Shown one piece after another: positions 14,101 through 59,489 of a DNA stretch of 64,000 bases; the first letter of the stretch is position 1; every line of letters starts with the position of its first letter. The notes under the pieces were generated by a model that worked only from the letters and a program-made list of their open reading frames with translations, ran no database searches and was not told where the DNA came from. The stretch comes from Gnetum montanum (Eukaryota; Plantae; Gnetophyta). The position numbers were made by a program, and so were the translations under genes. The DNA is taken from the NCBI GenBank assembly GCA_015680685.1, contig MNCI01002363.1, positions 568,866-632,865 on the forward strand. The letters run 5' to 3'.

Positions 14101-17100
14101 ACTCATGATACCAAGTTGCGATTAGCTTGCAACGGGTACAAAATACTCAAAGATTTGCGCAGCAATGCCAATCAAGGGTCTCTGGGACATGATTAAGAAT
14201 CAGGTTCAATCCTAACAACTTGGAATGCTTATGTATGGATGTAAGAACCTTCAATATGCAAATCATATCAATGACCAGAAGCAGTAAAATGAAGGAAAGT
14301 GCAAATTGTTGTCAGGGATGATTTGAAAGAACCATTAGACATAGGAGGAACAAAGGCAATGAACATGCAGAAAAATGATCAAATTAATGAGACTTGGGGC
14401 TTGCATTCTACATGTAACAGGTTTGGTCTCAACAGTTTATGCTGAGATATGACAAATTTTGGAGAAGGAAACTACTAAAATTTGCTCCAGCTCATTATTT
14501 GACAAGGATTTGCAAGCAAGCGGTTACCAATACGAACCACACATGAGGCATCATTACATTTTTGAATATTCTTCTAATGTATCATGTTAGCTATATGTCC
14601 TCGGCTGTACCATGTAGGGGACAAGTACCCCTTTCAAGCAACGTACCCTACTAGACATGGTGGCTAAGGAACACTGTGAAGTTGTGTGTTTGCAAGAGAC
14701 CAAAGTTCAGCAGCAGGAGTTTCATTGGTTGCGCTGGCCAAGTTGGCACTCCCATTGTGTGCCATGTTAGGGGAGGTCTGGAGGTTTGGCAACCTTGTCT
14801 AAGTGGCCTTTTGGGGTGGTGGATGAATCCAAGTGGAGTATCAATATCCAGCTTCACCGAAAAGGTTTGCAAGTTACGAACTTCTATGGGGGCTCAACAA
14901 TGGAAGGAACACCTGCAAGAGTTGGAATGAATTGCACCCTTGATTGCTAACTAGCAATAGTGGATTTTGGTTGGGGATTTCAACCAGCATCTCCATACGT
15001 GGGAAAAGTCAAATCGGGACATGCCAGACCCTCTGGGGGGTCAGTAGTTTCAAGATTTTCTGACAGCACATGGGCTGGTGGATGTGGAGATTAGGGGGTG
15101 TCAATTCACGAGGTGCAATCAAAGAAAAGGCCATGACAGGCCCATGACCAGAATTGATCACATATGGGCAGGCTTGACCATGCTCATGGATAAAGGGGTG
15201 ATTGTCATTGGAAAAGAAAGAGTTGCATCAGATCTTCAGCCTCTTGTGTGTGTGTTGGGTCCCCCCAAAGATAGGGAGCCTAGACCGTCTAGATTCGAAC
15301 AGTCGTGGTTGATGCAACCATGGTTGATATCAATGATGGAAGATATCTGGAGGACCTCTTTTCTGGATAGTGACCCCAAAGATTTCCTCAAACAGGGGTT
15401 GACTTTGCTCAAGCACCACATTCGCAGGATCAGGTTAGAAGACAAATTCCTGCGGTGTCTGGAACAAATTCAAAAGGACCAAGAGCTGAATCAGACTCAG
15501 GCGGATGATGAGGGAGAGGTGCTAGGGGAGCTCCATGTGCTTGACAAAGAAGAGGAAACTTATTGGAGGCAGAGGGGATGGGTAAGATGGCTCCAAGAAG
15601 GAGATAGAAATACGCATTTCTTTTTTGCAGCTGCTCATTTAGCTTGCTTGGCCAAGTAGACCTGTATTAAGGATGGAGGGGTAATCGTGGAGGGGAAACA
15701 GGCGGTTGCCTAGGTTTTGTGGAAGTACTGGTCTACAATTTGGGAACAACGGTAGACAAAGCCGATCTCCATAGACATTCTGCAAGTGCTTAGGAAGGAG
15801 GACAATCAAAGATTGTCAATGCCCTTTACTCAGGCCGAGTTGAAGGGAGCGATGGCGTCCATGAAGGGGGGGAGGGCGTCAAGTACTAATGGGTGGCCGA
15901 TGGAGTTCTTTCAAACCTTTTATAGTGTGATGGGGGGAAATATCCTGGATGTGTTTAACGAGATGTTGTTCTAGGGGCAAGTGAGACAGGAGATCAACTA
16001 CTCCCGACTAGTGTTGATCTTGAAGACATCAAACCCTTCGAGCCCAGCCCACTTTCATCCTATTGGGGTGTGTAACACTCTTGATCAAGCTTTTCTCGAA
16101 AATGTTGGTGGCACGACTAGTGCCCATGATGCAACGCCTAGTTGGGGAACAACAAGCTAACTTTGTCAAAGGTAGATATTTGTAGGATCAAATTCTTCTA
16201 GTGCAAGAGATGATGCACTCACTTGGGTTAACATGATTTCCTAGCATGTGTTTGAAATTAGACATAACTAAGGCATATGACATGGTCTCTTGGAGTGCAC
16301 TACAGGAAATCATGTTATGTAAGGGTTTCCACCCACATTTTGTGAAATTGTGCCTACATATACAGCAATCAAGTGCATTCTCCTTGGATCTTTGGGGGGG
16401 TGGGGTGGGGGAGGGGGGGGTCGTGGATTGTGGGGGTTCACCTCCCCCCAACAAGGGGTTAAGATAGGGGGGACCCCCTTTCACCCTATCTATTCATTCT
16501 TGTGATGGATGCCATGAACACATATTGCAGGTTAGAATGGGTTAGAGGCCTAGAGGTTGGAGGGGTGCATTGGCTGGTGGAGCACTATGCCAACAATACG
16601 TTCCTATTCACAAGGGCCACCATTTCTCAAGTGCTTGCCATTAACCGGCCTCCTCTCCAAATGGCCAACAAGATTGGGCTAGAGGTTAACAAAGGTAAGT
16701 CTTTGGTGCACCTTCTTAATGTTGAGCAAACGGTGCAAGGAAGAATTGTCCAATTGTTGGGGGTCTTACTGGGGTCCATGGAGGATGCCTACCTGGGATT
16801 ACCTTTGTATGACTAGCATAAAAAACGTGTTTGGGAATGCTTGATCAGAAGAATGCAATTATGGTGGGGAAAGCTCCCCGAAAGAATTAAATTCTTTTTT
16901 TGGTTGATTGGACATGCTGCTCTCCCCGTGCAGCATGTGCTACGAAGGAGGGGGCTACGAGTGAATGCCACGTGTCCCCTTTGCATGGCGAGGGAGGAAA
17001 CGATGGAGCATTTTGCATGGCAATGTACTTATTTAGCATGGGTGTGGCAAGCTACGCAAATTCCACTGCCAATTACGCTGAATAGAGACTCGCCTACCAC

Positions 17101-20100
17101 AACCATCCTTTGGCAATTGTGGAGGACTAGAAACTACCAGATTTTTCAGGACATCGCTTTGCCATTACTGGCACAGCTAGCAACTACAAGTTTTGGGGCA
17201 TGGAGGGAAGCGCAGGTGGCAATGGGGGTGACCCTAACCTACAAACCATCTTGCGAGGAATACCATGCTACTTTAGTCATTTGGCATCTGGTGGATAGGG
17301 TGGGTTGGGCCTCAATGCTAGAGCAGTTCCATGGGGACCCAAACCTGGATGACGGGCCGTTCTATAACAATTGGCATGAGGACATCACTTTGTTTCAGGG
17401 GGTGAGAATTATGTTCACCGAGGCTACCATCACTAGGTACCTACAAGTACTAACGGAAGGGGAGGAGGTGGCGCTACAGGGGAGAGGGCTCCAAGATGTG
17501 TGGGAGTTTCTCCTGGGGACAATGCCCAAGATGGCCAATGGGCAGGTCCCTAACTCAACTTTGGAGCCTATGAGGTAGGATGTTGCGGTGCTCGTGGACC
17601 AGTTTTTCATCCACTCAGGCAACGCATGGAAGCTGCTAGGGGTGCATTTCAACTTCATGCGTTGTCTTCGAAGGGGAATTGTTGTGAACCTACCTTGTTA
17701 CTTTTTGGGGGTGTTGCGTCAAAGGAGGCAAGGAACCCCCTTGTGGCCCACCATCAGTGGTTAAAATTTCTACAGACTCTAGTGAGTCGAAGGAGGTTGC
17801 TTCCAAGGGGAGAGCAAACCGGGGGGTTGTTGGGGAGACTGAAGTGGGGAAGTTGTCGCAACCCCAAGAAGGACTGGAGAGACCCCAAGGGGGGATGGAC
17901 CTCTGACTAGGCCAGGGATGGGGGTTGAAGAAGATGATATGTTGAGGATGGTAGGGCTACTGGCGGACCTAGAGGCGGTGGAGGACAAGCATGCGGAGGA
18001 GCATGCGATTTGGGCAGAGCAGCTAAGATGGCGATAGGAGGAGTTCCAGAAGGAGCTGGAATAGCTAAGGTGGCGAGAGGCAAAGTTCCAACAAGAGCTA
18101 AAATAGCTGACCCAACACTATGAGGAGGCGATGAGGGTAGAACAAATGTAGCGTGACTTGGCAAAGGCAACGACCAAGTAGGATTTGGAAGAGAAGCTTC
18201 AATAGTAGATACGAGAAGAGCTCCAGGAGGAGGCTCAGCTCCAAGAGGAGCAGGCGAGGAAGAAGCAGCAACAATGAGAGGAAGAGGTGCAAGAAGAGGC
18301 AAAGATTCAAGCACGGCTAGATCAGGCCCATGAGGATCATGCACGTTCATGGCTACAAGAGGGGAGATGCTCCTAAATTTTGGACATCTAGTGTAGCACT
18401 CCGTGGGCCACGCTCTGAAGGCATATCCGATGCCAAATTCAAAAGCTGCATCTAGATGGGGAGAAGAACATTGAGAAGCAAGAAAGGACAAAGGCAAGCT
18501 TCAAGGAATTTTAGTAGGCGGCAACCTTTGTTGCCATCGAGTGCAATAGGGTTGTGCTAGATACCATTCACAGCCAAAAGCAATGCTGCTGTAGGTGCTC
18601 AACGCTTCCTATGTGTCTTTAGATTGTTTGTGGGTGAGGTCTCTTTTGATCGGTGTGACCTGGGTGTGGGCTTTAAATGTGTTTTTGTTTTCTTGTGTCT
18701 GTAGCTTCTTCTAAATTCTCTGAGAGAATTCTGGTGAGTGGGTGGGGGGGCCTGTAACCTCCAATTTGGGAGAAGGGGAGATGCTTTCTCCCCGTATTTT
18801 TTGGAGATGTTGATATGATGTACATGTTTTTGTTTCATTTAATTTTACACCCAAAGTTTCTCCAAAAAAACAAAAAAAAAACTACTAAAATTTAATTGTC
18901 TAAGATACTCAAATTGTTATAGTGGTTTTTAAACCCTACAATAAAACTCTGATTTTTTATATAGCCTTAAAAATAAAAAGGATATTGTAAACAATAGTGT
19001 TGTTTATAAAATATCTTACATTTGTAAAAAATATTACATTTATGAAATAGGCAAAACTTTCTCTATTAGATTGAAAGAGCCATCAAAAAACATACAGTAA
19101 AATAGATCTTCTAAATCACTTCTTTTAGAATATATTTAAAAAGATAACCCCTCTTAAAAGCATGTGGTTAATAGAAAATAGTAAAGTTCTTTATATAATG
19201 GAAAACTTTGTAGATTAAAAATCAGAATTCATTCAAGTAATCTTAATAGAGATTGAACTTATTTTACACAGAGATAATGCAGCCGAAAAATCCTAAAGGT
19301 AATGAACAAAGTGCAAAACTAAAACAAAAAACCAGAACAATCATTTAACAAAGTGCAAAACCAAAATAATAGAATAATGAGGTGTTTGCCTCATGGTAAG
19401 ACTCTTGATTTGAAAGCTTCAAGTCATGGGTTTAATTTTGGTGGGCAATGCTGCGTTATGAAGTTCTAATGGGACTATATAACTTACAAAATAGCAAATA
19501 AGATGTACAAGATTTACGAGGTAAAACCCTCAAAAACAAAGAGAAACCTCCATAGGAAAAAAGGCCCAACTCTTATTGTTTGATCAACCCAAATGAGGTG
19601 TTCTTATACAATGACCAAGGGATCTAGCCCTTAAATAGGCAAAGTCATGTTACAAAGTCTAACCTAGAAATTTCTAGAACATTCCAGAGAATTACTTCTA
19701 AATTAAAAATTGAACCCACAAAACTAACTAACAATAGTTTATCCCTTACAAAATGATCATATTTAACAATTAAATAATCTTGCTTTTGCATTGAACAACT
19801 AAACTACCCCATGAAGACATCACCACCTCCATTCATGACACCTCACTTCAATAACACACCTCCCACTAAAACTTGCATCAAGGAGAAAACATTTACACCT
19901 AAACAAACCAAAAGCAAGGACATGATACAAAAACTACAACTGCAATTATTATAAAACCTAGAAGCTCCCCACAATAACACCAAGGCCTTCCAAACACCCT
20001 ATAAAACTAAGATCATGTGTTAACCTATAAAACATAAATAGAAAATAGAAAATCTTGTGCTTATGCAAGAGACATCTAAATTGACCAATTTTAATCAATC

Positions 20101-23100
20101 CCTCTATAGCATCTACAAATTCATCTTTCTTCATGCAGTAAACATAAACTTGGACACAACACAAAAGACATTGTAAACAATGCAATATTCATATTTACAT
20201 GTTCAAAGAATAAAATAGACATCAAAATTTAATTCCCTTTAATGCTTCAGATATAACTCTAGTAGAAACAAACTTGCAATCTCTATTTACATGCCTACAT
20301 TTATCACATTTCCAACAAACTGGTATCCTGTTCTTTTTATTGCTCTGTATAAGCAACACTTCACTTTCTAGTAAAGTTGTGAAGGTGTTGTCACTTATTG
20401 TTGTCATTGCATGAACACTTCTTCCCAATAATGTTCCCAACAGTATCAACAAATGTTCATCACTTAAAACCTTGTGACCCATTACTTCTAGATTTGCTAT
20501 TGCAATATTAAATTTTGCCAAAAATTCAAAAAGCATTTCAGCTTCTTGCATTTCAAGCCAATACAATTTCCTATACAAAAAAACCTATTATAGGATGCAA
20601 TAGCTTGAAACCTTAGTTCTAATTTCCTAAGCAAATCTGATGTTGATTTTTACTCCTAGTATTCTACCAAAATTGCATCGCAATGCACCTACAAATCAAG
20701 GTCAATGGCTTTCGATTCCATTTTTGAAATTCTTTATTAGTCATGAAGAAAAATTTCTAGTCAAAACAATAACTCATTCCCTTTCATATAACAAATCTAC
20801 AATCTTCATCTTCCAAAGACTATAGAAACTTCCATCAAACTTTTGAATAAGAACCATTTTTGGATTCATGCACACTTAAGCAAGAATATCCAAAAGTAAA
20901 AACCAAAAATATAAGCAAATCTAAAGAAACACTTCAAAATTTGCATCCCCACTCATTTCTTTACACAAACAACATCCTCACAACATGGAATTTCTACAAC
21001 TCCCACTTTAGAACTTTCAAAAAAAAATTTCTCCACAAAATTGCACTTCTACACTATTAAATCTTGCTCTAGCCTGCATAAAAGAACCTGCCATAGAGAA
21101 AACTCATAAGGCCTCAACCTCTCTCTAATACTACTCTATTAGAGAAAAATAGCATGGTAAAGCAAATGGACAAAAATTATGTAAGAAAGAAAACACAGAT
21201 AACGTAATTGAAAATTCCTAAAAATACTAAGCAAAATACAAAATCAAAATAGTAGTTGCTGCAAAACAACAAACAAGAGACACAAGATTTAAACCTCCAT
21301 AGAAGAAGCCCAACTCTTATTATTCAAAAGATCCAAAAGAGGTGTTTTCATACAATGACCAAGGGATCCACCCCTTAAATAGGCAAGGCCATGTTACAGA
21401 CTCTAATCTACAAACATCTTAAAATTATCTTTCTAGAATTGTTTTAGCAATGTAAAACATTTTGGATAATCACTTCTAGATTAAAATCAAACTCCACAAA
21501 CCATCTAGAAAGAACCCATTAACTAACAATAGCTCATCCTTTACAAAAAGATCATATTTACCAATTAAACAATAGAGTTACAAGATTTAACTTCACATTT
21601 ATAACATCGGGTTCCAATACCTCCCCTCCTCTTGTATATAATTCTTTTTCTTTAGTTCTTAAGAAAATTATAAGAATTTTTTGCTAGTGATTGTTTACTT
21701 ATCCAAAAACTAGTTGTTATCCTTTAAAAGCTTGATTCTTTCTTCTTTATCTTTATTTTTAAATTTAAAAAATATTTTTTTAAGATTTAAACTAACTATT
21801 ACCTACTATATCTCAATTAGCCATTGCCTATAGCACTATATATTCTCTTTCTATTCCTTAAAAAATCAATTACAACTAATGATTATTCTAGTATGATTTT
21901 TAATGTTTTGCAAAAAAAAAAATGCAAGTTATGTATGGTACAAAGATTCAAATTGTCTTTTAACGAATGCAATAAAGATAATTTCCTCTAGAGAATACAA
22001 GGTGAAATGTAGTAAAGATACACATCTGGTTTAACAAAAGAAAGGAACCATCTTCTACAAAGATGGGCACAAACAATGCAGAGTTTGTTGACAGACACCC
22101 CATGTAATGCAAATTGGGGACAGGATGAATCACCGCTGCTTAGAAAGTGCAATCAGATGGAACAATTTGCATGCATATTGCATGATAAAAACATCACTCA
22201 CTCATCTATTATTACCAAATAGAATTAACACGAGTTCTACGGGATTTCTGAAAAGTATAGCAAGAACAAAAGCACAGGCTGTTGAATGAAAGACTTGTAC
22301 TGCAAGTCCAAGAAGGTTTTAGGATAAAAAGATTTTTAGGATTATTAATTTTTGTGATAAACGCCATCATCTTGTATGGTAGGTAATTAGGTACATCAGA
22401 TCTACAATCTGGACTTCTGTTAATTATTTTCAAAAGTTTTACTGCTCTAGATTTGCATTTGCTGTACCTTTGGACAATTGTAACATTAGAAAACAAAGAA
22501 AGTTGATACAATTGTTTCCTTTCACCATTTTATTTTCAGCATGTATGCCAATGCAAATATCAAAGCCATCAAACTTCCAAGCCTTGCAGCAGTTTTTCAG
22601 CAACAGCCATCATCATTGTTCAATCTTTATGATGACCTTAGATTGTTTTTATGTATTCATAGTTAAAATGCTAGTATGCTCAATTAGCAGATATAGAGCC
22701 ACCATTGGATGAACCGTATATTAATTTTGCAAGTGACACCTGAAACAAATATTCTCTTTAAAAGTATTTAGTTTGAATAATAGAGAACTCCACCAATGTC
22801 ATTGCCAAACCCAGATATGAAAGGAGGAGAGTTGGCTGTAAAGCCTTGCCAAATCTCATGGATGAGTTTCTTTTTCAGATTTTGCAAATGCTAGTGCATT
22901 TGCCAGATGCAATGCGCAACAGTCACATGATCGAAGATGATTTGAAGAAACCAAAAATAAACAAAGATCTAGCTCTTCATAGAGGCAAATGGCAAAAAAG
23001 AACTCAAGTAGATGACCTCATTTTGTTGGGACAAGGCTAGTAGGATGATGATGAGTTTGAATAATAGAGGAGGTTATAAATTGACTGTTAAATTCCTTTG

Positions 23101-24429
23101 GCTAGCATGTTTTCTCTTGTAATTTCATCATGATTAGATATCTAAGTTCACCCAAAAGTCTACTGCTATTAAATTGAAGCATAAGAAACATTACAATGAG
23201 CTCTCACACTACTGGGGGGAGGTTTGGACCAAGCGACCTACTCAACCCATCTCAGTCCATGTCAGTCCATGTGGAAAAGGTGCTCAATGCTGCGGACAAT
23301 CGCCGTCTACTGGCCCCCTTCTCCTGGCCAGAACTGACCAACACCATCAACAACATGCCAAGAGGCAAAGCGCCTGGACCGGATGGCTGGTTGCTGGAAT
23401 TCTTCAAAGTTTTCATGGACATTGTGGGGCCCAACCTTCTGGATGCTTTCAACATCATGCTGGCCAAACGACAAGTGCGGCGCGAACTCAACTGCTCTCA
23501 AATCATTTGCATTCCAAAACAGTTGAACGCCCGCCGCCCGGAACACTTTCGTCCCATTGGAGTTTGCAATGTCCTCATTAGAATATTCTCCAAACTCCTG
23601 GTCAACCGCCTGGGACCCCTCTTACCCAAGTTGGTTGGAAGCAATCAGGCTGGTTTCATTCAAGGTAGGACCCTCCAAGATCAGGTTCTTCTCATGCAAG
23701 AGGTCCTCCATTCCCTTCGTACCACAGGCTTTCCTGGTATGTGTCTCAAGCTGGACATAGCCAAGGCGTACGACACACTTAGTTGGGATGCCTTACAAGA
23801 TATCATGCATAAAAAAGGTTTTGATCGTGGTTTTATCCAATTATGTATGCATATCCAGTCCTCCGCGGGTTTCTCCTTCGACGTGGGGGGACGACTGTGG
23901 GGTTTCTCTTCGCCTAGTAGGGGTCTACGACAAGGTGACCCACTCTCTCCCTTGCTTTTCATCATTGCCATGGACCTCATGCAATATTATTGCAGCACAT
24001 CAGGCGTGGAGGGCTTGGATACTGTTGGGGTGGCATGCCGTGTTGAACACTATGCTGACGACACCATGTTACTTAGCCGAGCAGCGGCCCCACAGGCAAG
24101 ATGTATCAACATGGCCTTAACCAGACTGGCTGCTGAATTAGGCTTGGAAATCAACAAAACAAAATCAGCAGCGTATTTCAGCAATGTTGATCCATAGGTG
24201 AAGAACAGGGTGACACAAATCCTGAACATTCAATCGAGGACTGTCACCGATACCTACCTTGGTGTCCCGCTGTTCCAATGGGGGCGGACCAATGCATGGA
24301 CTCCCCTCCTGACCAAGCTCGAAAAGCGGATGAACCATTGGGCCAATCGCTTTCTTACATGGAAGGGCCGCCTCCTAGTGGCAACAGGGATCTTCACGGC
24401 CATCACACGGTTTGTGGCGGCGGTCGCCG

Positions 24430-24468
<39 letters not shown>

Positions 24469-27400
24469 GGCCATCTTTCAACAGATCAACACCATGATAC
24501 GAAGTTTCATTTGGCGGGGGGGCAAAAGGGGGAGCAAGCTTCATTTGGTCAACTGGCATCGCATTGCCCGCCCTCACAAAGCGGGGGGGCTGGGGGGGTC
24601 ACGTCCTTCGAGGACGAAAGCATGATGGGTCAGCAACAGCTCGTTCACAGGCTGATGCGCACGCAAGGGGAGCTCAGCCCCTGGGCCCGCATCATTCAAC
24701 GAAAATACACACCCTAGCAAATCGGCCCGCGCCCCTCGCGGCCCTGGCAGACAATCTGCCGGCATGAACAGGAAATGATGCACTTGGGCTGGACCCACCT
24801 CAAGCCTCGCGCCATGCTGACACAAAAATATCCACCGGAGGACGGCTGGCAGGAGATCTGGGGCGGGCGGCTCCCCAAAAAAATCAAACTGTTCCTCTGG
24901 CTCATTAAGTCCGTCGCGCTTCCCGTACGCGCCGTACTGCAGCAGCGCGGCATCATGCACGATGACACGTGCCCCCGATGTGAAAACGGCTCAGAAACCA
25001 TCACGCACTTCATTCATAGGTGCCCTTGCATGCTTGCCATCTAGCGCGCATCGGCAATGCCCCCCCCCCCCGAGACGGCTTAATGGTGACTCCTGGGCAT
25101 CCCTGCTTTTATGGCACGCCTGGAAGGCGCGTAATCGCACGATTTTTCTGCAGGTCAGAACTCCCCCTCCCCAACAGATCATTGCGCAGACCGGCAGGGC
25201 GTGGAGAGAGATAACGGGCGCCATGGGAACTACACCGACGTTCAAGCCTGACTGTAGCAAGTACCGCGCCAATGAGGAGCTTTGGCGGCTAGTTGTCCGC
25301 TGCGGCTGGGCCGACCTGCTACAGCGGTTGGTCGGCGACCCTAACCTTACTGATGCCCCTTTTTTTACTAACTGGCAAACTAACAGTACCTACTTCCAAG
25401 GACACGTGATTCGTCTCACTGAATCTGCTATTGCCAGCTGTTTGGGGGTCCCGGCCGCTAGTGAAATCATCCTGCCGACCACCCGTGGCCTCCAGGACAC
25501 CATTGCCTTTTTCGAGGGATCGGCCCCAAGAACGCAGAGCCGCCAAATCCCCCAATCTTCTCTCCCACGCCTCTGGGCCCGGGCCGCCGGCTTGGTGGAC
25601 CGCTTTTTCGTCCAATCAGGCAACATGTCAAAGCTCCAGGGATTGCATTTCACTTTCCTGCGATGCTTGAAATATGGTGTCCAAATTAACTTGCCGCGGT
25701 TTTTTCTTGAGAGCCTCCCTCTTAAGAGACGAGGTCGCCATTCGGGGCTGATTCTGGCGTTATGGAGGGGGGNNNNNNNNNNNNNNNNNNNNNNNNNNNN
25801 NNNNNNNNNNNNNNNNNNNNNNNNNNNNNNNNNNNNNNNNNNNNNNNNNNNNNNNNNNNNNNNNNNNNNNNNNNNNNNNNNNNNNNNNNNNNNNNNNNNN
25901 NNNNNNNNNNNNNNNNNNNNNNNNNNNNNNNNNNNNNNNNNNNNNNNNNNNNNNNNNNNNNNNNNNNNNNNNNNNNNNNNNNNNNNNNNNNNNNNNNNNN
26001 NNNNNNNNNNNNNNNNNNNNNNNNNNNNNNNNNNNNNNNNNNNNNNNNNNNNNNNNNNNNNNNNNNNNNNNNNNNNNNNNNNNNNNNNNNNNNNNNNNNN
26101 NNNNNNNNNNNNNNNNNNNNNNNNNNNNNNNNNNNNNNNNNNNNNNNNNNNNNNNNNNNNNNNNNNNNNNNNNNNNNNNNNNNNNNNNNNNNNNNNNNNN
26201 NNNNNNNNNNNNNNNNNNNNNNNNNNNNNNNNNNNNNNNNNNNNNNNNNNNNNNNNNNNNNNNNNNNNNNNNNNNNNNNNNNNNNNNNNNNNNNNNNNNN
26301 NNNNNNNNNNNNNNNNNNNNNNNNNNNNNNNNNNNNNNNNNNNNNNNNNNNNNNNNNNNNNNNNNNNNNNNNNNNNNNNNNNNNNNNNNNNNNNNNNNNN
26401 NNNNNNNNNNNNNNNNNNNNNNNNNNNNNNNNNNNNNNNNNNNNNNNNNNNNNNNNNNNNNNNNNNNNNNNNNNNNNNNNNNNNNNNNNNNNNNNNNNNN
26501 NNNNNNNNNNNNNNNNNNNNNNNNNNNNNNNNNNNNNNNNNNNNNNNNNNNNNNNNNNNNNNNNNNNNNNNNNNNNNNNNNNNNNNNNNNNNNNNNNNNN
26601 NNNNNNNNNNNNNNNNNNNNNNNNNNNNNNNNNNNNNNNNNNNNNNNNNNNNNNNNNNNNNNNNNNNNNNNNNNNNNNNNNNNNCAGTGGGCCATCCCTG
26701 ATGTCCCATTGTTTTGTATACTTGTGTACCATACTTCATAGTAATACAAACCCGAACATTTTCTCAAAAAAAAATGGCAAATCAATATAAAACATCGGGT
26801 CAATGAGGATTCAAGCCAACTGGAAGCTTCAATGAAAGCAGAATTGAATTGGTAATGCAGTTTTATTATATCACTCCTATGCTTACCTTCTGTTTTCTCT
26901 CTCTTGCTGCAGACCCTTTTAAGGATAATGCATATTTAAATGTATTTTTCTGTTTTTGTGAATGTTTTCTATTTCTTAGTCCTAGAATATATGTTAAGAT
27001 TTTGCAGAAAATCCAGTTGTAGATTTTATTATAGGCTACTTCCTTGCTTGCTGAAGATTTTATAAAATTTCCACTTTAATCTCTCAACTGCATTCCATTT
27101 GATCAAGGTAATCATGGTGTCATGCGCTTGTTTTTCCCATCAGATAGTTATGACATCAACAAGTTTTATTGGGTACAGAAACTCTATGACTTTTAGGTTA
27201 TTCTCAATTCTGAACATTGAAAGGCATTCAATCCATTCAAGCCAGGGAAGCAAGGAACTTCTCTTGAATCATTGTTGCTTTTGAAAAGTTGGAGCATCAT
27301 TGCATCATCTTCTTGGGGTCTTCTAGCATCAATCATACTCAAAAGCATCTTCATTTTCACCTCTTTCAACTTCAAAGGCACTTACATTTTCTTCTTCACT

Positions 27401-49669: not shown

Positions 49670-51179
49670 TGTACTATCTAAAATCGTCGGTGCAAGGCTA
49701 GAATGAAACAGACATCAAGAGATCTATAGACAGGCACAGAAGACTCTACCTGTGCTTGAGGGCAAGTTGGAATGGATGAAGGTAGAGTGCCTTGAATGGT
49801 CCGCACGCAGATCAAATGAGGACTTCCCCAACGTACACACTTTGCAATGCGTTGGGTTATACGTAAACGATGCACATTAAATGTAAACCATAACGTAAAC
49901 AGACACAATAATGTAAATTGGAATGTAAACGTAAACTAGAAAAATAAAGAAAATTGCAATAAATTTGGGCAAAAATGTAAATTGTTTTGTATTAAAAAAG
50001 TGATTACAGCGTGCACCGGTCAGAACGTAGTTGTGGATTAATCACAAGGTGGACATTTAGCCTTGGTGGATGATGATAAGTGCTGGGAGATGCAGGTTTT
50101 GGGTTGCAGGGAAATGCAGCGTCCAAGTCTAATGCCCAGTGTACAGAGGTTTTTTGCCTAGATTTTCTAAGTGTACCATATCTAGTTTTTTTTGTCTCTG
50201 TTTGTAAAAATTGCCCACCCTTGATCTAGTGAAAAATTGGGATTTTTATGAGATCTTGGGCGTTAGATTTGGATCTAGAAGGGTATGAGTGGCCGTGGGT
50301 GAGAAAATTTTGGGTCGGATGACATGTGGCTATGTTGCCCGAGTGCAAAGAATGTTACAACTATATAGCGTGCTGCATGCCAGCGTCCGTGCAGAGTATG
50401 TATGCTTAGCATATAGATCATGGAAGTGCATCATTTCAAGGTTGAATCTTCATTTTTGGGAGCCTAGGATGATGCCTGAAAATTGCCTTGCCTCTGAGAG
50501 TCGATTGTAGGTGGAGATCTTGTTCTGGGGTGCTTGTTTTGAGAGATCCTTGATGGTGCACGCTGGGTGTACACGCTGGGCATGTAGGAATGAAAACCCA
50601 TCATTTGGAGCCCAAAACTTAATTTTCAGGAGCCTGAGAGCTACTGGGGACCTTGGTGAAGGTCCTGGGGGGTTCAAATGCTCAATTTTGGCATGTTTTG
50701 GCTCATTTTTGGGACCCATAAGTTGCTGCACGCTGGGCGTGCAGGAATGAAAACCCATTATTTGGATCCCAAAACTTGATTTTTAGGAGCCTGAGAGTTG
50801 CTGGGGACCTTGANTTGCTAGGGACCTTGATGAAGGTCCTGGGGGGTCCAGACCCTCAATTCTAGCATGTTTTGGCTCATTTTTGGGGCCCAAAAGTTGC
50901 TGCATGCTGAGTTGCATGCTGAGTTGCACGTTGGGCATGCAGGCCTGTGTGCAAGAAGTATACTTAGTCAAAACTAAGTGTTTTAAGTTTGAAGCTTGCA
51001 GTTCTTATTTTCAGATGTTGATGTAGCCTCCAATGGATCTCAGGGAACTTTTACTTGCTTGATTCAACTCTGTTTGATGCTATTTGTGAAGTTTGCAAGT
51101 TTCGATCATGCTAGGAAGCATCATGACTTAGCTCGATTATTGTCCGAAAGTGTTAGGTCCAAATTTTTGTGGTGTTTCA
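49670..51179 (-). repeat. 3' LTR of element C (1510 bp; 2 internal units of about 170 bp)
   Basis: Colinear with 57603-59489; TG...CA termini. Confidence 0.9.
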
Positions 51180-52244
51180 TTGGCCCCTCTTTGTTGATGC
51201 TTGGAGGAATCGACCTGAGAAGCATTAACAAAGAAGTACAAAACACCACAAACAAACTGGTAGCAAGCATTGTCCTTTGGCACTTGGCCAGATGTCATCG
51301 CACCATGTTCAGAAGTACCTGGGATTGGGAAATTGAGTTTTGAGATGATATCTAGAGGAGATGTTTGCAATTTTGGGATTGGGAATTGATCAAAGGATTG
51401 TGCTAGTGTGGGAGTGGAGTGTTCATCTATGCTAAAGACCCGTGTTGGTTCTCGTCGATGGCGAGTGTTCGACGGACTTGGAACCACGGCATGAGGTGTG
51501 CGTCCTTTGGAGGAACAAGACTCTTGTATTAGGTTTAAGAGAACTTGTTGTTGCAACCAAAGCCACACGATGAGGCAAAACATGATGGTTTGAGACACGA
51601 GTATTTCTTCCAAGACAACTGCCTTTCCATATGGGGCTTGTATGGGAAGTACCAAGGGTCTTATGGTTCATTTTGCTCTTTGTTCTTTGATCTTTTTTTT
51701 CTTTTTGTTCTTTTTTTTGGAAAGAGCTTTCTTTCAATTTTGCACTCATGCTCATGTGCCATGTTGTGCATTGCAACTGCTTGATAGTGTCGCAGCATGC
51801 AATAGTGTGCTCAAAGTTTTGGGGTATACTAGGTGTATCTGGGAACTGTAACCGGGTAGGAAAGGGAATGAGAGTGTTGGGGAAATGGAGAATGTATTGG
51901 GAATTGAGAATGTACTTTTGAATAGATTGATTAACCTGGTTGCGTGCGTTAGAAACAATGTGGCACCTTGTCACTGTGATGAAGTGTATCTGTGTATGAG
52001 CACCACTGGGTGTCATCCTGCAAACACAACTCTAAGAAGACAAGAAAACCACAAGTGAATGAGTTAGCGAACACTTTAGACACGAATGTGGCCGATGCAA
52101 ATGGAGGTACCATGTGAAACTTAAGGTAAACAAAATGAGTAGCAATAGTGTTGTCAGAGCCGGTGTGATGAGTGATGCGGTAGGCATTGATGAAGAAATG
52201 TCATGAATTATAGCAGTAGATGAATGTGCCAAAGATGATCTTGC

Positions 52245-52772
52245 TAGTTTATAGTCTTAGTGGACTATCGTGGGTTAGTTTTACGTCATAACCCATTGGA
52301 CATTGCCAGTTTATCGTCGTAGCAGACGGTGTGATCCTAGTTTATAGTCGTGGCGGACTATGAAAAGGCAAGCTAGTTTATAGTCTTAGCGGACTCTGGT
52401 AAATGAGTGTAACAATTTAACGTCATGTTGGACGGAGCTCTGTGGCATTGGTTTATCGTCATGACTCCAGGACGTATCTGTGGTGTTAGTTTTGAGTCAT
52501 AACCTAGGACAGGTCTGTGGTATCAGTTTACCGTCATGATGCTAGGACGATCTGTGGTGCTAGTTTTTAAAGTCATAGCCCAGGACATTTTGTGGTATCA
52601 GTTTACCATCATGATGTCAGGACGAAGTGTGGTATCAGTTTTAAGTCATGATGCCAGGACTGCTTTATGGTGTTAGTTTTGAGTCATAACCCAGGACATT
52701 CAGTGGTATCAGTTTACTGTCATGATGCCAGGACGAAGTGTGGTATTAGTTTTAAGTCATGTTGCCAAGACT
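52245..52772. repeat. Tandem array of about 36-41-bp units in the 3' UTR of element C
   Basis: Units such as TGTGGTATCAGTTTACCGTCATGATGCCAGGACG alternate with TGTGGTGTTAGTTTTGAGTCATAACCCAGGACA; about 13 copies. Confidence 0.85.
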
Positions 52773-53198
52773 GTCGGTGTGGATGCATGCGTGTGTGTCC
52801 ATATGATCTTGTAAACAAAAGAAACTAGAGAAAATAATGTTAAATAGCAACTGAAGAAGACATGAACTAAAATGCACAAGTAAATAGAAAACTATGTGAA
52901 AGGGTGGTAGTTTAAGGCCATTTCAGGCCACAGTTTAGTTTAAGGCCTTTTCAGGCCATGAGAGAATGCGTAAGCTAGTACAACACAAATGAACGTGACA
53001 TATGCACAACAAAAGAATGTGAAGAGTATGTAGAGATCCAACTTGTTTTTGGCCACAGGGGTGTTTTGATCGTGTGGTTGTCGCCTAACCAGTTGTAGTT
53101 TTGGAAGCATTTTAGACTTAGGCTCCGCTGGGAGGCTTATGGTTTTTACCACTCGTTCAAGCATTTTAGCTCTAAATACTGTGTCGGTTGCCACACGT

Positions 53199-56100
53199 CT
53201 AGGCATTTTTGGCTCTAGGTGTTACGTTTGTTGCTGTGTGTGTTGCTTCAAGAGGCTTCCCTTTCAAGACTTGTGACATGTCTATGTTGTGGTCAGCTTG
53301 AAAGGGAGTGTTGCCGCCATGTATAATGACTTGTCCACCTTCGTATGGAAGGTGGATTTCTTGATGTATCGGTGAGGAAATGGCTCGTTGTTGTGCTAGC
53401 CAAGGTTTGCCAAGAATCATGTTGAAACTGGGCATCTCTTCTATGATAGTGAACTCCGCGCTGGTGGGGAATTGTTCACCTGCCATGAAGGCTAGGTTAA
53501 TCGTGCCCTTGACTGTGACACATGATTCATTGAAGGATTTTAGACACATGGTTTCTATTGGCATGATCTCGTTTGCCATGCCTAGTTTATCGATGACGGA
53601 GTATAGAACTACGTTTGTTGCTGCGCCATCATCAATGTGCACTGTGTGAATGGTACATTGTCCAACACGTATGCTAATCAATAATGGAGCTGTTGTGACC
53701 TCCCCTCGTTCGAGGTTGACTTTAACTGCATCATTGCAGAAGGCTAAGGTGTTTGAACCCAATCCCTGTGGTGTGTGTTGTGAAATCATTGTATGGATGG
53801 ATTCCATGTTAGCAGGGATGTCCTCTGTAACAGGAATGGATGCTAACGTTTGTGCTAAGGCTTCGCGATGAGCCAATGATGTCATGACCAAGTCGTACAA
53901 GCTCAAGGTTGTGTTCTTTTGTTTGAGTGTTTTTTTCACCTAGGCCAATGTAGCTACAAAGTCTGTGTTATTTGTCATTGTGTTGGTTGCCTCTGTATGG
54001 GTCAAGGGCTTGGGCCTGGTTTGTTTGGGATGAGGGGGAGGGCCCCCAGCGTTCGGTTGCTATGTACTCAGTGTGGCCTTTGCTTCGGCTATGGATGTTA
54101 TTCGTTGTTCGTTTGTCCTCTTCTTCTACCATTTGATAGGGTTACCCGTGTCGTTGGCAAGGTTGACTCTTGAAGGAGAAGAGGTTGAGACATTGCCTAC
54201 AGTTGGGCTCTAGGTAGGTGAGGGGCCATGGCGTGGTGGCACCTTTATGAAAAATGGTAGTTTGGAAGGAGTCGTTGGTGTTTGACTACCTTGTTGTGGC
54301 ACCTTGATAACGAAAGGTTTCTTTGCTATTGTCATTGGTGTGTCGTGCCAGTTTAACGTCTTAGCGGATGACTGTGGTGGTAGTACTTTGACCATGAAGG
54401 GTGTCGTCGGTGCCCTAGGTGGCACCTTGATGACGATGGGAGGCCTCTTGCTCGTGGAGGCAGAGGGGATTGTTGCCTTGCTGGGAGGCACACGGATCAC
54501 AAAAGGTTGCCGCACAGGTTTAGGCTTACTATCTATGCCAATGGAGTTTATGACATAAGAGGCATCATCTGTGCTGGGTTGATTCAGGGTGTTGACATTC
54601 AGTTGGCCCTGTTCTATCATTTCTTGTAGATCATCCTGTAACGCATGGTAGGTTTCGGTGTTGTGAGTAGACATCTGGTGGTAGTGATAGAATTGGTCTA
54701 ACTTGAAATGTCGTGGAACCGGGGGCTCATTTGGTGCTGCTAAGGTGGGGTTCCTTAGTAGCTCGCAGTACCTATTATGTCTTCAGCGGGCATTTTCTGC
54801 TACTTGTTTGTATTGGGCTTTCCCGATTTTGAGGAGTTTCTCTAGTAGTTCAGAGGGTTGCATGGGTAGCGGCGTATACTTAGAGCGATCCTTGCGCTGA
54901 AAGTTGGGCCTTGGGGTGGCCCCTGTCGTTGCAGGCTGGTTGGTACTGGTGTTTATTGTTTTTGTGCTTACGGCTACAGTTTCCATTGTTGTCTGTTATT
55001 TGGCAACGTGTTGGTTCTTGTAAGCCACATAGGCGAGATCATTGTTGGCTTGTGCAGCTTGTTCAATGTTCTTGATTTGCGTGAAAGCTTGGCTCAACGT
55101 TTGAGTGCTTAGGTAGTACAGTTTTGACTTAACGAAGTTATTCACGGCTTCCTTCAGAATCATAAGCAAATATGTTTCAGGGATGGACTCATGAAGTTTG
55201 TTAAGGACTATGCTCCATCGTTGAATGAACTTCTGCACAGGCTCTAGTGGCGCTTGTTTCACTTGTATCAGAGTGTCTAGTGTTGCTTTAGGCTTCAAGT
55301 TGTACTTAAACCTAGTAACGAATTGGTGTAATAGATCCTCAAGAGAGGATATGGAGTTACATAGCAGGGCTCGGTACTAATCTAAGGCTACGCTCGTTAA
55401 GGACATAGTAAACACATGCAAGATTGCGTGGGGCCAAGCTTGAAGCAATAGAGTCTCTGATTGGAATGTTACCAAGTGAGCATTCGGGTCTCCCTTGCCG
55501 TTGTACTTGGCTAACTGTGGGAGTGTGATTCCCTTGGGTAAAGCTAACGGTGGCATTGAAGAGCTAATTGGATCATTGTGGTAGAAGTCCAGTACTTTAA
55601 CTGCTTCAGTGTTGGCAGTTTTGAGGTGCTGTACCTCGTCAGCTAATGCTTGCATCCATTATTTTGCTTCTGCCCACTCTTGAGTGGTAGGCAGATTAGT
55701 TGGTTGGGGAGATTGTGTTATCAATTGCTGTTGCGGAGGAACGTCTAGGGTTGTGGTTTTGGGATGTGGCATGTTGAAGTGAGTGGGTTGTTGAATAAGG
55801 GGTATGGTTCCTCACCTAGCCACAAACTGTGAAGTGACACCCTAAATGTATGGGGCCAATGTAACGAAAGTGACCCCATGTGTTTGCACTGGCAGCATGT
55901 ACTGGGTGGATGTGGATGTGGGTAGTCCATGTCAGGATGCTGATGCTTGCGTGCTCGTTGACGCGTGGTGAGTGGCCATCTGTCCTATGGAAGGGTGGAA
56001 TGATGGGTTCACATAGGCATGGGGACTGAGGGTATGGTATGAATCCTCAGGTTCAGATTGTGCCTCAAAGTAATCTACATCATGTTGGTTTTGGGGCTCC

Positions 56101-56363
56101 TCAGTGGGTCACTGTGTGTTTTGGCTCCTTGCCAGAAGGAGCTGAGAGATGAGTCAGTGATGAGGCTCAGAAAGGGGGATGATCCTATATACAGAGGGGA
56201 TGAATTCATGACCTCCCATGTATGTGTGCTCGAAGTTTCATTTTGCCTCCTGTTCTGTGGTGTCAAGGGGAAGGTTGGCCTAAATCTTCACACAGATAAA
56301 GTTGTACTATTCTTATGTGAGGATTACGAAGGTGCGTGTGTTAGAGTTTTGAGATGACTCCAT
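53199..56363 (-). pseudogene. Element C gag-protease polyprotein (in-frame stops)
   Basis: LPKGITLPQLAKYNGKGDPNAHL (gag), FIQRW, YH..STHNTETYHALQDDLQEMIEQG (Ogre-type knuckle remnant), SLYDLVMTS..HREAL, protease VHIDDGAATNVV and FNMILGKPWL. Confidence 0.85.
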
Positions 56364-56413
56364 GATGATGTGTGACGAGGTAGTGTACAGGCTGGCTAAT
56401 TGTGCAATGTGTG

Positions 56414-56560
56414 CAGCGTGTGAACACTAAAAATGTTTCTAAGTGTCCAGCGTGTGAACACTGAAAATTTGTCTAAGTGTCCAGCGTGTGAACACTAAAA
56501 ATTTTCTAAGTGTTGTCAGCGTGTATAGCATAAACAGGAGAAAAATTTGGCTAAGTGTGA
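56414..56560. repeat. Tandem repeat of about 35 bp, 3-4 copies (element C 5' UTR)
   Basis: CAGCGTGTGAACACT(A/G)AAAAT..TCTAAGTGTC units. Confidence 0.85.
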
Positions 56561-56779
56561 AATTATGAATAGTGTACTCAGCATATAACCCTGTATTCTC
56601 AGTGTGTGAGGGTTATACACAGCGTGTGAACACTAGTCAAGCGTAGAGACCACTCTCACAGCGTACAGGCACTGTTGTCATTGTATAGGAACTGGTCACA
56701 GCGTGTGAACTGGGTTCACAGTGTACAGACTACAACAGTCAGCATGCAGACAGAGTGGTTAGCGTGTTGAAAATGGTGG

Positions 56780-57250
56780 CAGCATGTAGACAGGGTCTAT
56801 AGAGTGTAGGAAAACAGGATAGCATGTAGACAGGGTCTACAGCATGCAAGAAAACAAGGCAACATGTAAACAGGGTCTACAGCGTGCAGGAAAACAAGGC
56901 AGTGTGTAGACAAGGTCTACAGTGTGTAGGAACACAAGGCAGCATGTAGACAGGGTCTACAGCGTGCAGGAAAACAAGGCAGCGTGTAGACAAGGTCTAT
57001 AGTGTGCAGGAAAATAAGGCAGCATGTAGACAGGGTCTGCAACATGCAGGAAAATAGGGTAGCATGTAGACAGGGTTTGCAGCATGTAGGAAAATAGGGC
57101 AGCATGTAGATAGGGTCTACAGCATGCAGGAAAACAAGGTAGCGTGTAGAAAGGGTCTATAGTGTGTAAGAAAACAAGGCAGCATGTAGACAGGATCTAC
57201 AGCGTGCAGGAAAACAAGGAAGCGTGTAGACAAGGTCTACAGCATGCAGA
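56780..57250. repeat. 40-bp minisatellite, about 12 copies (element C 5' UTR)
   Basis: AGCATGTAGACAGGGTCTACAGCGTGCAGGAAAACAAGGC units, each containing a GTAGAC..GTCTAC palindrome. Confidence 0.92.
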
Positions 57251-57602
57251 GTAAGTGGTCAGCGTATACCAAGGGTGTAGTACAATATGCAACCTTATAG
57301 GTAAGAAAAACTAAGTGTTTTAAGATAAAAATGAAAGAATAAGGCAGCGTGTATCCTAGAAAAATGAAAATTTTGCAAAGCGAAAGGCTAAGTCACAGTG
57401 TGTACCTGGTACATCGTGCAGATCTGGCTGAAGAGGTTGCAGATCTGGATGAGAAAAACTCAGATCTAGAGCTGATGAAGGTAGATCTGATGGAACCAAG
57501 AGTAGATCCGGGACCATGAGGAGTAGATCTGAAGAGATCGGGCCTAGATCGAAGTAGATATGAGAAATGATGAAGAAGGGCCCTTCTTCTAGCACCATAA
57601 AC

Positions 57603-59489
57603 TGTACTGTCTAAAATCTTCGGTGCAAGGCTGAAATGAAATAGACATTAAGAGATCTATAGATAGGCACAAAAGACTCTACCTTCGCTTGAGGGCAAGC
57701 TAGAATGGACGAAGGCAGAGTGCCTTGAATGGTCCGCACACAAATCAAACGAGGAGTTCCCCAACGTACACACTTTGCAATGCGTTGGGTTATACGTAAA
57801 CGATGCACATTAAATGTAAACCATAATGTAAATAGACACAATAATGTAAACTGGAATGTAAACGTAAACTGGAAAAACAAAGAAAACTGCAATAAATCTA
57901 GTTAAAAATGTAAACTTTTTTGTATTAAAAAAGTGATTACAGCGTGCANAAAAATGTAAACTTTTTTGTATTAAAAAAGTGATTACAGCGTGCACCGGTC
58001 AGAACGTAGTTGTGGATTAATCACAAGGCGGACATTTAGCCCCAGTGGGTGATGATAGGTGTTGGGAGATGCAGGTTTTGGGTTGCAGGGAAATGCAGCG
58101 TCCAAGTCTGATGCCCAGCGTATAGAGGTTTTTTCCCTAGATTTGCTAAGTGTACCAGATCCAGTTTTTTTGTCTCCGTTTGTAAAAATTACCCACCCTT
58201 GATCTAGTGAAAAATTGGGGTTTTTATGAGATCTTGGGCATTAAATTTAGATCTGGAAGGGTATGAGTGGCCGTGGGTGAGAAAATTTTAGGTTTAATGA
58301 CATGTGGCTATGTTGCCTGAGTGCAAAGAATATTACAACTGTACAGCGTGTTGCATGCCAGCGTGTACACACTGGGCGTGCAGAGTATGTATGCTTAGCA
58401 TATAGATCATGGAAGTGCATCATTTTGAGGTTGAATCTTCATTTCTGGGAGCCTAGGATGATGCCTGACAATTACCTTGCCTCTGAGAGTCGATTGTAGG
58501 TGGAGATCTTGTTCTGGGGTGCTTGTTTTGAGAGATCCTTGATGGTGCATGCTGGGCATGTAGGAATGAAAACCCATCATTTGGAGCCCAAAACTTGATT
58601 TTCAGGAGCCTAAGAGCTATTGAGGACCTTGGTAAAGTTCCTAGGGGGTCCAAACGCTCAATTTTGGCATGTTTTGGCTCATTTTTGGGGCCTAGAAGTT
58701 GCTGCACGCTGAGATGCACGCTAGGCATGCAGGAATGAAAACCCATCATTTGGAGCCCAAAACTTGATTTTCAGGAGCCTAAGAGCTGTTGGGGACCTTG
58801 GTGAAGGTCCTGGGAGGTCCATACACTCAATTATTGCATGTTTTGGCTCATTTTTGGGGCCTAGAAGTTGCTGCATGCTAAGCTGCATGCTGAGTGTGCA
58901 GGAATGAAAATCCATCATTTGGAGCCCAAAACTTGATTTTTAGGAGCTTGAGAGTTGCTGGGGACCTTGGTGAAGGTCTTGGGGGGGTCTAGACACTCAA
59001 TTCTAGCATGTTTTGGCTCATTTTTGGGGCCCAGAAGTTGCTGCACGCTGAGCTGCACGTTGGGCGTGCACGCTGGTGTGCAGGAATGAAAACCCATCAT
59101 TTGGAGCCCAAAACTTGATTTTTAGGAGCCTGAGAGCTGCTGGGGACCTTTTTGAAGGTCCTAGGGGGTCCAAACACTCAATTTTGGCATGTTTTGGCTC
59201 ATTTTTGGGGCCCAAAAGTTGCTGCACGCTGAGCTGCACGCTGGGCATGCAGGCCTATGTGCAGGAAGTATACTTAGTTAAAACTAAGTGTTTTAAGTTT
59301 GAAGCTTGCAGTTCTTGTTGCCAGATGTTGATGTAGCCTCCAATGGATCTCAGGGAACTTTTACTTGCTTGATTCGACTCCGTTTGATGTTATTTGTAAA
59401 GTTCGCAAGTTTCAGTCATGCTGGGAAGCATCATGACTTAGCTCGATTCTTGTCCGAATGTGTTAGGTCCAAATTTTTGTGGTGTTTCA
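57603..59489 (-). repeat. 5' LTR of element C (1887 bp; 4 internal units of about 170-180 bp)
   Basis: AGGAATGAAAACCCATCATTTGGAGCCCAAAACTTG... unit at about 58562, 58731, 58900 and 59082. Confidence 0.9.

Follow-up and report, generated by a model that had tools for sequence, protein, structure and literature searches.

An apparently undescribed plant L1 retrotransposon variant with an additional ORF2 domain of predicted VANC/Transposase_32-type fold

The stretch of plant DNA analysed here (64,000 nt, hereafter the window, within which all coordinates are given unless stated otherwise) contains two decayed copies of an L1-type long interspersed nuclear element (LINE), copy 1 at 14484-18878 and copy 2 at about 23195-26774. 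These are L1-type APE LINEs, with an APE endonuclease (seen in copy 1), a reverse transcriptase (RT) and a zf-RVT zinc finger in the second open reading frame (ORF2). Both copies run past the zinc finger and a W..W..RN motif into the same further domain of about 180 residues (the extra domain), and the element is a real, apparently undescribed L1 variant. The features of the two copies are as follows.

14469-14483, forward strand: left target-site duplication (TSD) of copy 1, 15 nt, a perfect match to 18879-18893.
14544-15659, forward strand: copy 1 ORF2, degenerate APE endonuclease plus linker (Exo_endo_phos_2, E 5.4e-6 when stops are treated as X).
15810-16810, forward strand: RT of copy 1, split over three frames (tblastn with the copy 2 RT, 45-50% identity).
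16856-17134, forward strand: zf-RVT finger (PF13966, E 1.5e-13) and W..W..RN motif of copy 1, the latter from translation.
17222-17728, forward strand: extra domain of copy 1, starting at an in-frame ATG (translation, alignment and profile search).
17906-18340, forward strand: decayed E/Q/K/R/A-rich stretch of copy 1 (60% of residues), from its composition likely a coiled coil.
18362-18540, forward strand: weak, decayed J-domain-like segment of copy 1 (3.2 bits with a J-domain profile), with HLD for HPD.
18857-18878, forward strand: 3' end of copy 1, TTTCTCC followed by an A-rich tail (A-rich part 18864-18878).
18879-18893, forward strand: right TSD of copy 1, a perfect match to 14469-14483.
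23178-24197, forward strand: RT frame of copy 2 (RVT_1, E 8.5e-29), the element being 5' truncated near the frame start.
24814-25035, forward strand: zf-RVT finger of copy 2 (PF13966, E 4e-15).
25223-25771, forward strand: extra domain of copy 2, stop-free, from an in-frame ATG 37 codons past W..W..RN.
25773-26684, no strand: assembly gap of 912 N, where the coil and J region would be expected in copy 2.
26760-26774, forward strand: 3' end of copy 2, TTTCTC followed by poly(A), presumably connected to copy 2 across the gap.

Copy 1 is 5' truncated, and three-frame translation revealed no ORF1. It carries a TSD and poly(A) and no long terminal repeat (LTR), as expected of an L1-type insertion, and because the perfect 15-nt TSD brackets the extra domain, the latter lies within the retrotransposed unit, in agreement with a first-pass annotation of the window. 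That annotation had also assigned the zinc finger and the domain of copy 1 to a single ORF. The two do share a reading frame, but the domain extends beyond ORF 16817-17578, which contains its first two thirds; the remainder, with LVDQFF...VNLP, lies past a single in-frame TAG at 17576-17578. Beyond 17728 the sequences of other copies are unlike copy 1. An internal deletion was noted in copy 1 at 16857, after the RT and before zf-RVT; contigs of other copies diverge from copy 1 at 16855-16858, and copy 2 has more than 100 extra residues there. The zf-RVT finger of copy 2 is set off by a frameshift from the segment comprising W..W..RN and the domain, and a run of 37 C at 24430-24466 in ORF2 coincides with a frameshift. 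A TSD was looked for around copy 2 and not found, and its 5' end near 23195 is therefore only approximate.

The C-terminal regions of the two copies align without gaps over 224 residues, 97 of which are identical (43%, E 1e-64), and the domain motifs quoted in the first-pass annotation are present in both. A third element, L001, a longer decayed L1 contig from another data set (coordinates are positions on this contig), was reached via one domain-profile match. It contains an ORF1 with the DUF4283 domain of plant-type L1s (E 7.7e-19), endonuclease, RT and zf-RVT, and its extra domain continues the frame of zf-RVT, which is interrupted by four stops in 378 codons. The in-frame passage from zf-RVT to the domain is thus seen in copy 1 and L001, copy 2 being frameshifted. 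The distance from W..W..RN to the first Met of the domain is 37, 37 and 39 residues in copy 1, copy 2 and L001, respectively, with no intervening stop in any of them, and all three elements end in TTTCTC and poly(A). A search for a TSD flanking L001 gave none, though poly(A) is present. Positions 1-205 of L001 are an inverted near-copy of 1937-2146, reflecting either a 5' inversion or an assembly artefact.

Further copies were found as contigs. The tail of copy 1 is covered by contigs from four runs labelled as four organisms, and in the best run 386 contigs cover it, 279 of these being less than 90% alike. Among 32 listed pieces of 1,215, several contigs cross the junction between W..W..RN and the domain without gaps; they stem from three DNA runs of differently labelled organisms (run X1, record 2; X5, record 7; X8, record 24), although run X1 possibly has the same source as the window. 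Coverage by other copies falls about tenfold past the domain, at 17729-18160, where a fast-evolving linker or a copy-specific version may be present. An oligo-dT run gave 3 reads on 251 nt of the tail, too few to be informative. In combination, three divergent elements keep the position, frame and sequence of the domain, which is the property of a family and not a local accident.

The identity between copies 1 and 2 in the domain (45% over 167 codons) is similar to that in the zinc finger (45%) and in three RT segments (45, 46 and 61%). At the three codon positions the nucleotide identity in the domain is 0.62, 0.63 and 0.30, and pN/pS, the ratio of nonsynonymous to synonymous differences per site, is 0.46 (bootstrap 0.38-0.56). 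The synonymous rate dS is saturated, for which reason a proper dN/dS is not computable. This RT-like protein identity together with saturated synonymous sites shows that the domain is conserved as a protein about as strongly as the RT. The proposal that it has been kept under selection is therefore upheld, and purifying selection on the domain is supported. The same data bear on whether the region is passive cargo, that is, a functionless 3' transduction or nested fragment of another element. Such an origin would suit the decayed state of every copy seen, and L1s are reported to transduce their 3' flanks (PMC7264820). However, cargo does not account for protein conservation at the level of the RT with saturated synonymous sites, nor for the maintenance of frame and spacing in three deep branches; by blastn the two copies give only two short matches (129 and 71 nt), and just the 71 nt fall in the region. 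Passive cargo is thus highly improbable, and was rejected as contradicted by this conservation.

Plant L1 ORF2s with a C-terminal RNase H have been described (PMC5203782). When the window and L001 were scanned in six frames with an RNase H profile built from 9 segments, no score exceeded 3.8 bits, whereas the same profile matched 51 of 120 control ORF2s. The absence of RNase H noted in the first-pass annotation hence stands; the present elements fall outside the RNase H-bearing type of plant L1, having no RNase H past zf-RVT, and RNase H was rejected as an identity for the extra domain. In an RT tree made by a quick method from 118 rows (the three elements and those 115 of the 120 ORF2s with long enough matches), copy 1, copy 2 and L001 form one clade with an SH-aLRT branch support of 100, the branch of L001 being long. 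Its sister (SH-aLRT 95) comprises 17 rows, including 13 proteins labelled PITA, which we take to denote loblolly pine. Since 11 of these 17 rows carry RNase H (PF13456), it is likely, judging from the sequences, that the extra domain took the place of RNase H. The 120 long ORF2 relatives listed (26-42% identity) all lack the extra domain, and neither PF20167 (Transposase_32) nor PF00226 (DnaJ) is annotated on any of them. The elements resemble RNase H-bearing plant L1s in the order APE-RT-zf-RVT-W..W..RN, in the DUF4283 ORF1 of L001 and in their sister RT clade, and differ from them past W..W..RN, where another domain and a long tail are found.

The extra domain had initially been regarded as the end of ORF2. 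This did not hold, as the coding region continues past the domain through a charged, probably coiled-coil stretch to a J-domain that had gone unnoticed. In L001 the domain is followed by a 660-codon frame, offset by one base from the domain frame. It contains 11 stops, while the two alternative frames contain 37 and 76. All 9 internal stops of this frame are TAG, as would be expected from C-to-T decay of CAG codons. Near its end the following feature was found.

L001 7546-7770: J-domain (Pfam DnaJ, PF00226, E 2e-9, 37.8 bits against a cut-off of 27.8), upstream of the 3' untranslated region (UTR) and poly(A).

It lies about 370 nt upstream of poly(A), and J-domains rank top among its matches in the PDB. 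The corresponding part of copy 1 is more decayed. Its charged stretch contains a 42-nt tandem repeat at 18021-18108, and TAG accounts for 7 of its 8 stops up to 18340. The J-like segment, whose HLD lies 415 nt upstream of poly(A), aligns in register to a 77-sequence J-domain profile, with 5 of 2,000 shuffles scoring as high. It has no Pfam match; phmmer against the PDB returned only two unrelated matches (E 0.43-0.47), and BLASTP between the tails of copy 1 and L001 gave E 0.17. At the copy 1 stops 18512 and 18515 other copies have CAG, which yields FKEFQQA, similar to J-domain helix III. By these comparisons the J-domain of L001 is clear and that of copy 1 weak.

When 1.84 billion representative sequences were searched exhaustively with a domain profile, 19 proteins were returned at E ≤ 0.001, the longest of 593 aa; the five named ones are from Welwitschia, Ginkgo and Taxus, which makes a gymnosperm host probable. 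The L1-type domains and a Welwitschia transcript protein (P0004) form one clade (support 99), consistent with one capture. Most other matches are stand-alone proteins, and no J-domain was found in the stand-alone MGG...EP relatives scanned. P0003, P0005-P0009 and P0011-P0021 constitute a diverse, unnamed MGG...EP stand-alone family of predicted VANC-like fold, most of which Pfam misses, and P0003, from Ginkgo, seems to carry the domain twice. Searches for other arrangements were negative: no long fused protein was found among 1,878 candidates (the domain against proteins of 343-2000 aa), a four-sequence profile matched only its own member P0004 among 3,119 candidates, and a pattern from the two-copy alignment matched none of 132 metagenome contig stretches and none of 22 prokaryote genome stretches.

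Many of the stand-alone relatives begin with MGG...EP, and in all three elements a Met occurs exactly at this start; P0004, known from a transcript, begins at the same Met. These observations speak for a tail made mainly as a separate third protein, comprising domain, coil and J-domain. Its translation would start at the conserved ATG, either through reinitiation or on a subgenomic RNA, and the link to ORF2 would be incidental or secondary. The uninterrupted passage from W..W..RN to the Met in the three elements, with a spacing held at 37-39 codons, and the gapless bridging contigs count against it. We regard this explanation as quite unlikely; it is compatible with the anti-silencing role considered below.

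The domain had been assigned to the Transposase_32-type, 'env-like' proteins of LTR retrotransposons. Kinship with Transposase_32 and ATHILA was corroborated: in the ESM Atlas, Transposase_32 clusters account for 23 of 30 matches (best 0.92, with 169 shared features), and ATHILA ORF1 reaches 0.90. Conversely, membership in PF20167 was not borne out, as the copy 2 domain scores only 12.5-12.7 bits (E 0.12-0.14) against a gathering cut-off of 45 bits, the Pfam scan left the domains of copy 1 and L001 unmatched, and 3 of the 19 relatives match it (E 1.5e-5 to 0.037). From its sequence the domain thus appears to be a remote Transposase_32/ATHILA relative, below the Pfam cut-off. A membrane env identity was rejected, since no transmembrane helix is seen in five segments (top 19-residue Kyte-Doolittle means 0.5-1.3, maximum 1.31), and 'env-like' fails in this sense. 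A PDB sequence search with a 19-row profile gave no match at E ≤ 5, and a viral model library gave no structural match at E ≤ 0.001. Transposase_32, ATHILA ORF1 (PF03078) and the plant mobile domain (PMD) are described as LTR-retrotransposon accessory ORFs (PMC11728184, PMC6317226). The similarity of the extra domain to these is remote and far under the Pfam cut-off, its nearest relatives being the unnamed MGG...EP family.

The fold was addressed by modelling. An AlphaFold2 model of the copy 2 domain (predicted local distance difference test, pLDDT, 86.8; predicted template modelling score, pTM, 0.83) was compared with 48,161 solved chains, and the sole match at Z ≥ 2 was VANC21 (Z 5.8, root-mean-square deviation (rmsd) 4.1, 167 of 183 residues aligned). 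With Foldseek, VANC21 gave a template modelling (TM) score of 0.45 and E 4.0, the other rows listed having TM ≤ 0.23. A model of the stand-alone relative P0015, made from an alignment without the L1 rows (pLDDT 90.6), matched VANC21 with Z 8.1 (rmsd 3.9, 186 aligned; next Z 2.5) and in Foldseek at rank 1 (probability 0.84, E 0.11). Since 15 alignment rows are common to both, the two models are not fully independent. The match spans the whole extra domain and falls on residues 297-525 of the VANC21 chain (PDB 9LNK/9LNJ). In print, VANC has been likened to MAIN/PMD (PMC13547354; 10.1101/2024.09.27.615353), and Transposase_32 related to ATHILA ORF1 (PMC11728184). On account of the full coverage, the gap to the next match and the agreement with these reports, the extra domain is predicted to have a VANC/PMD/Transposase_32-type fold, and remote sequence features together with the models would place it in the Transposase_32/ATHILA/PMD/VANC fold group.

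VANC21 is reported to bind a 9-base DNA motif and to strip methylation from its own family (PMC5735166). The earlier conjecture of an anti-silencing or chromatin-related role thereby gains structural support, in the form of predicted models matching VANC21. The most likely reading, although we consider it an even call, is that the tail is a counter-silencing module, in which the VANC-like domain would bind DNA or chromatin of its own family and protect it from methylation. It would go back to a single capture of an entire accessory gene with its start codon, taken from some other plant mobile element and probably replacing RNase H. The domain would then bind the element's own DNA or chromatin and counter methylation by the host, and the charged tail may multimerise, as coils are predicted to do in VANC and Athila proteins (PMC13547354). 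The J-domain would recruit Hsp70, provided that HPD is intact in active copies. The targets of the module might be the source copies or, at insertion, the new copy, and it might work within the ORF2 protein (ORF2p) or as a shorter product initiated at the conserved ATG. The fuller proposal, that an old seed-plant L1 lineage exchanged RNase H for a complete counter-silencing module, in which a VANC-like domain binds DNA sequence-specifically, a coil multimerises and a J-domain recruits Hsp70, is tentative, and we lean against it.

Several observations weigh against a counter-silencing role. ORF2p is usually scarce and acts in cis, making it a poor fit to a trans-acting demethylation factor. The identity of the domain to VANC21 is 8-10%, the Foldseek E values of 4.0 and 0.11 are not significant, and a Z of 5.8 is in the range that the tool rates as common and may reflect a common arrangement. 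Moreover, a common fold does not show function, and the host silencing factors MAIN/MAIL1 are reported to use the same fold (PMC8616336). VANC targets are described as tandem motif arrays (PMC5735166); none turned up in the 3' UTR of either copy 1 or L001, the true 5' UTRs being missing in all three elements. The charge of the domain varies, with K+R/D+E of 22/12 in copy 2 and 14/18 in copy 1. With respect to the J-domain, the copy 1 segment is outside the top 15 of 3,108 six-frame chunks, and its frame is not stop-poor relative to the other two (13, 12 and 10 stops). HPD reads YLD in L001 and HLD in copy 1 and is intact in neither. Both could derive from HPD codons via C-to-T and G-to-A decay, but no variant at or above 40% was seen in other copies at the copy 1 HLD codons. 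Finally, an unbroken frame from the domain to the J-domain was found in no copy seen.

The altered HPD bears equally on an alternative in which the tail is a chaperone or particle-assembly module, its J-domain bringing Hsp70 to fold or activate the RT while the globular domain and coil organise the ribonucleoprotein. The position of the J-domain within the element in L001 is in line with such a function, and viral replication proteins that carry or need J-domains, namely polyomavirus T antigen and hepadnavirus polymerase, provide a parallel. As HPD reads YLD and HLD, and as the VANC-like fold of the globular domain would be left unexplained, this alternative seems improbable. In a further alternative the domain is a targeting tether, which would bind chromatin or a DNA motif where insertion takes place and direct target-primed reverse transcription, leaving methylation unchanged. 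A cis-acting ORF2p can bear a tether at one copy per particle, the fusion partner of the domain is the enzyme responsible for target choice, and its fold match is a DNA-bound protein. Still, the only target site seen, that of copy 1, is an ordinary AT-rich 15-mer, and none of the stand-alone relatives among the 19 proteins found is fused to an enzyme. We regard a tether as unlikely, though less so than the other alternatives.

Returning to the counter-silencing reading, the closest precedent by predicted fold is VANC21 of the VANDAL21 Mutator-like transposons. The likeness extends across the domain, both proteins are transposon-encoded, and a coiled coil is predicted for VANC. VANC has a gene of its own in VANDAL Mutator-like DNA transposons, whereas the extra domain is a LINE-encoded, in-frame extension of ORF2. 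VANC has been reported as dicot-specific (PMC13547354), and the present data suggest that the VANC-type fold also occurs in gymnosperm elements. Insect R1 LINEs are reported to have captured a viral SF1 helicase at the C-terminus of ORF2, for which counter-silencing was proposed (PMC4686597). Both cases concern a LINE with a foreign domain ending ORF2, and LINE clade, host and domain differ. In the literature searched, no LINE with the extra domain or a J-domain was found, Repbase, Dfam and most subscription journals lying outside the search and possibly cataloguing the architecture; the main text of an L1-wide survey has no occurrence of 'DnaJ' or 'gymnosperm' (PMC5203782).

Plant DNA transposons are known to encode anti-silencing proteins, namely VANC and TnpA (PMC5735166; 10.64898/2026.08.24.746577). 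Such a role is suspected for LTR-element accessory ORFs, and no protein of this kind was found described for plant LINEs in the literature searched. Were the fuller proposal above true, this non-LTR retrotransposon would possess a protein-based anti-silencing system of its own, brought with the RT to each new insertion, and the VANC/PMD/Athila fold would be one mobile module common to DNA transposons, LTR elements, LINEs and hosts. The findings further suggest that Transposase_32 or 'env-like' ORFs encode nuclear VANC-type proteins and not envelope proteins, and the J-domain hints at a possible Hsp70 link to retrotransposition or de-silencing. A VANC-like domain under RT-level selection in an L1 ORF2 also provides a defined construct for probing a widespread, poorly understood fold.

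Remnants of other genes and elements surround the two copies. Just upstream of copy 2, a short stretch at 22960-23060 ends in (GAT)n and resembles what we take to be the 3' end of a plant RTE LINE. A copia-type gag fragment is located between the L1 copies at 20222-20584 on the minus strand (E 0.0068). The minus strand of 50450-59000 likely holds a Ty3/gypsy-type element with gag- and protease-like frames (Gag_p24_C, E 0.0085), in which the extra-domain profile found no strong match. A decayed subtilase gene fragment (Peptidase_S8, E 0.002) is present at 1452-2201, also on the minus strand.

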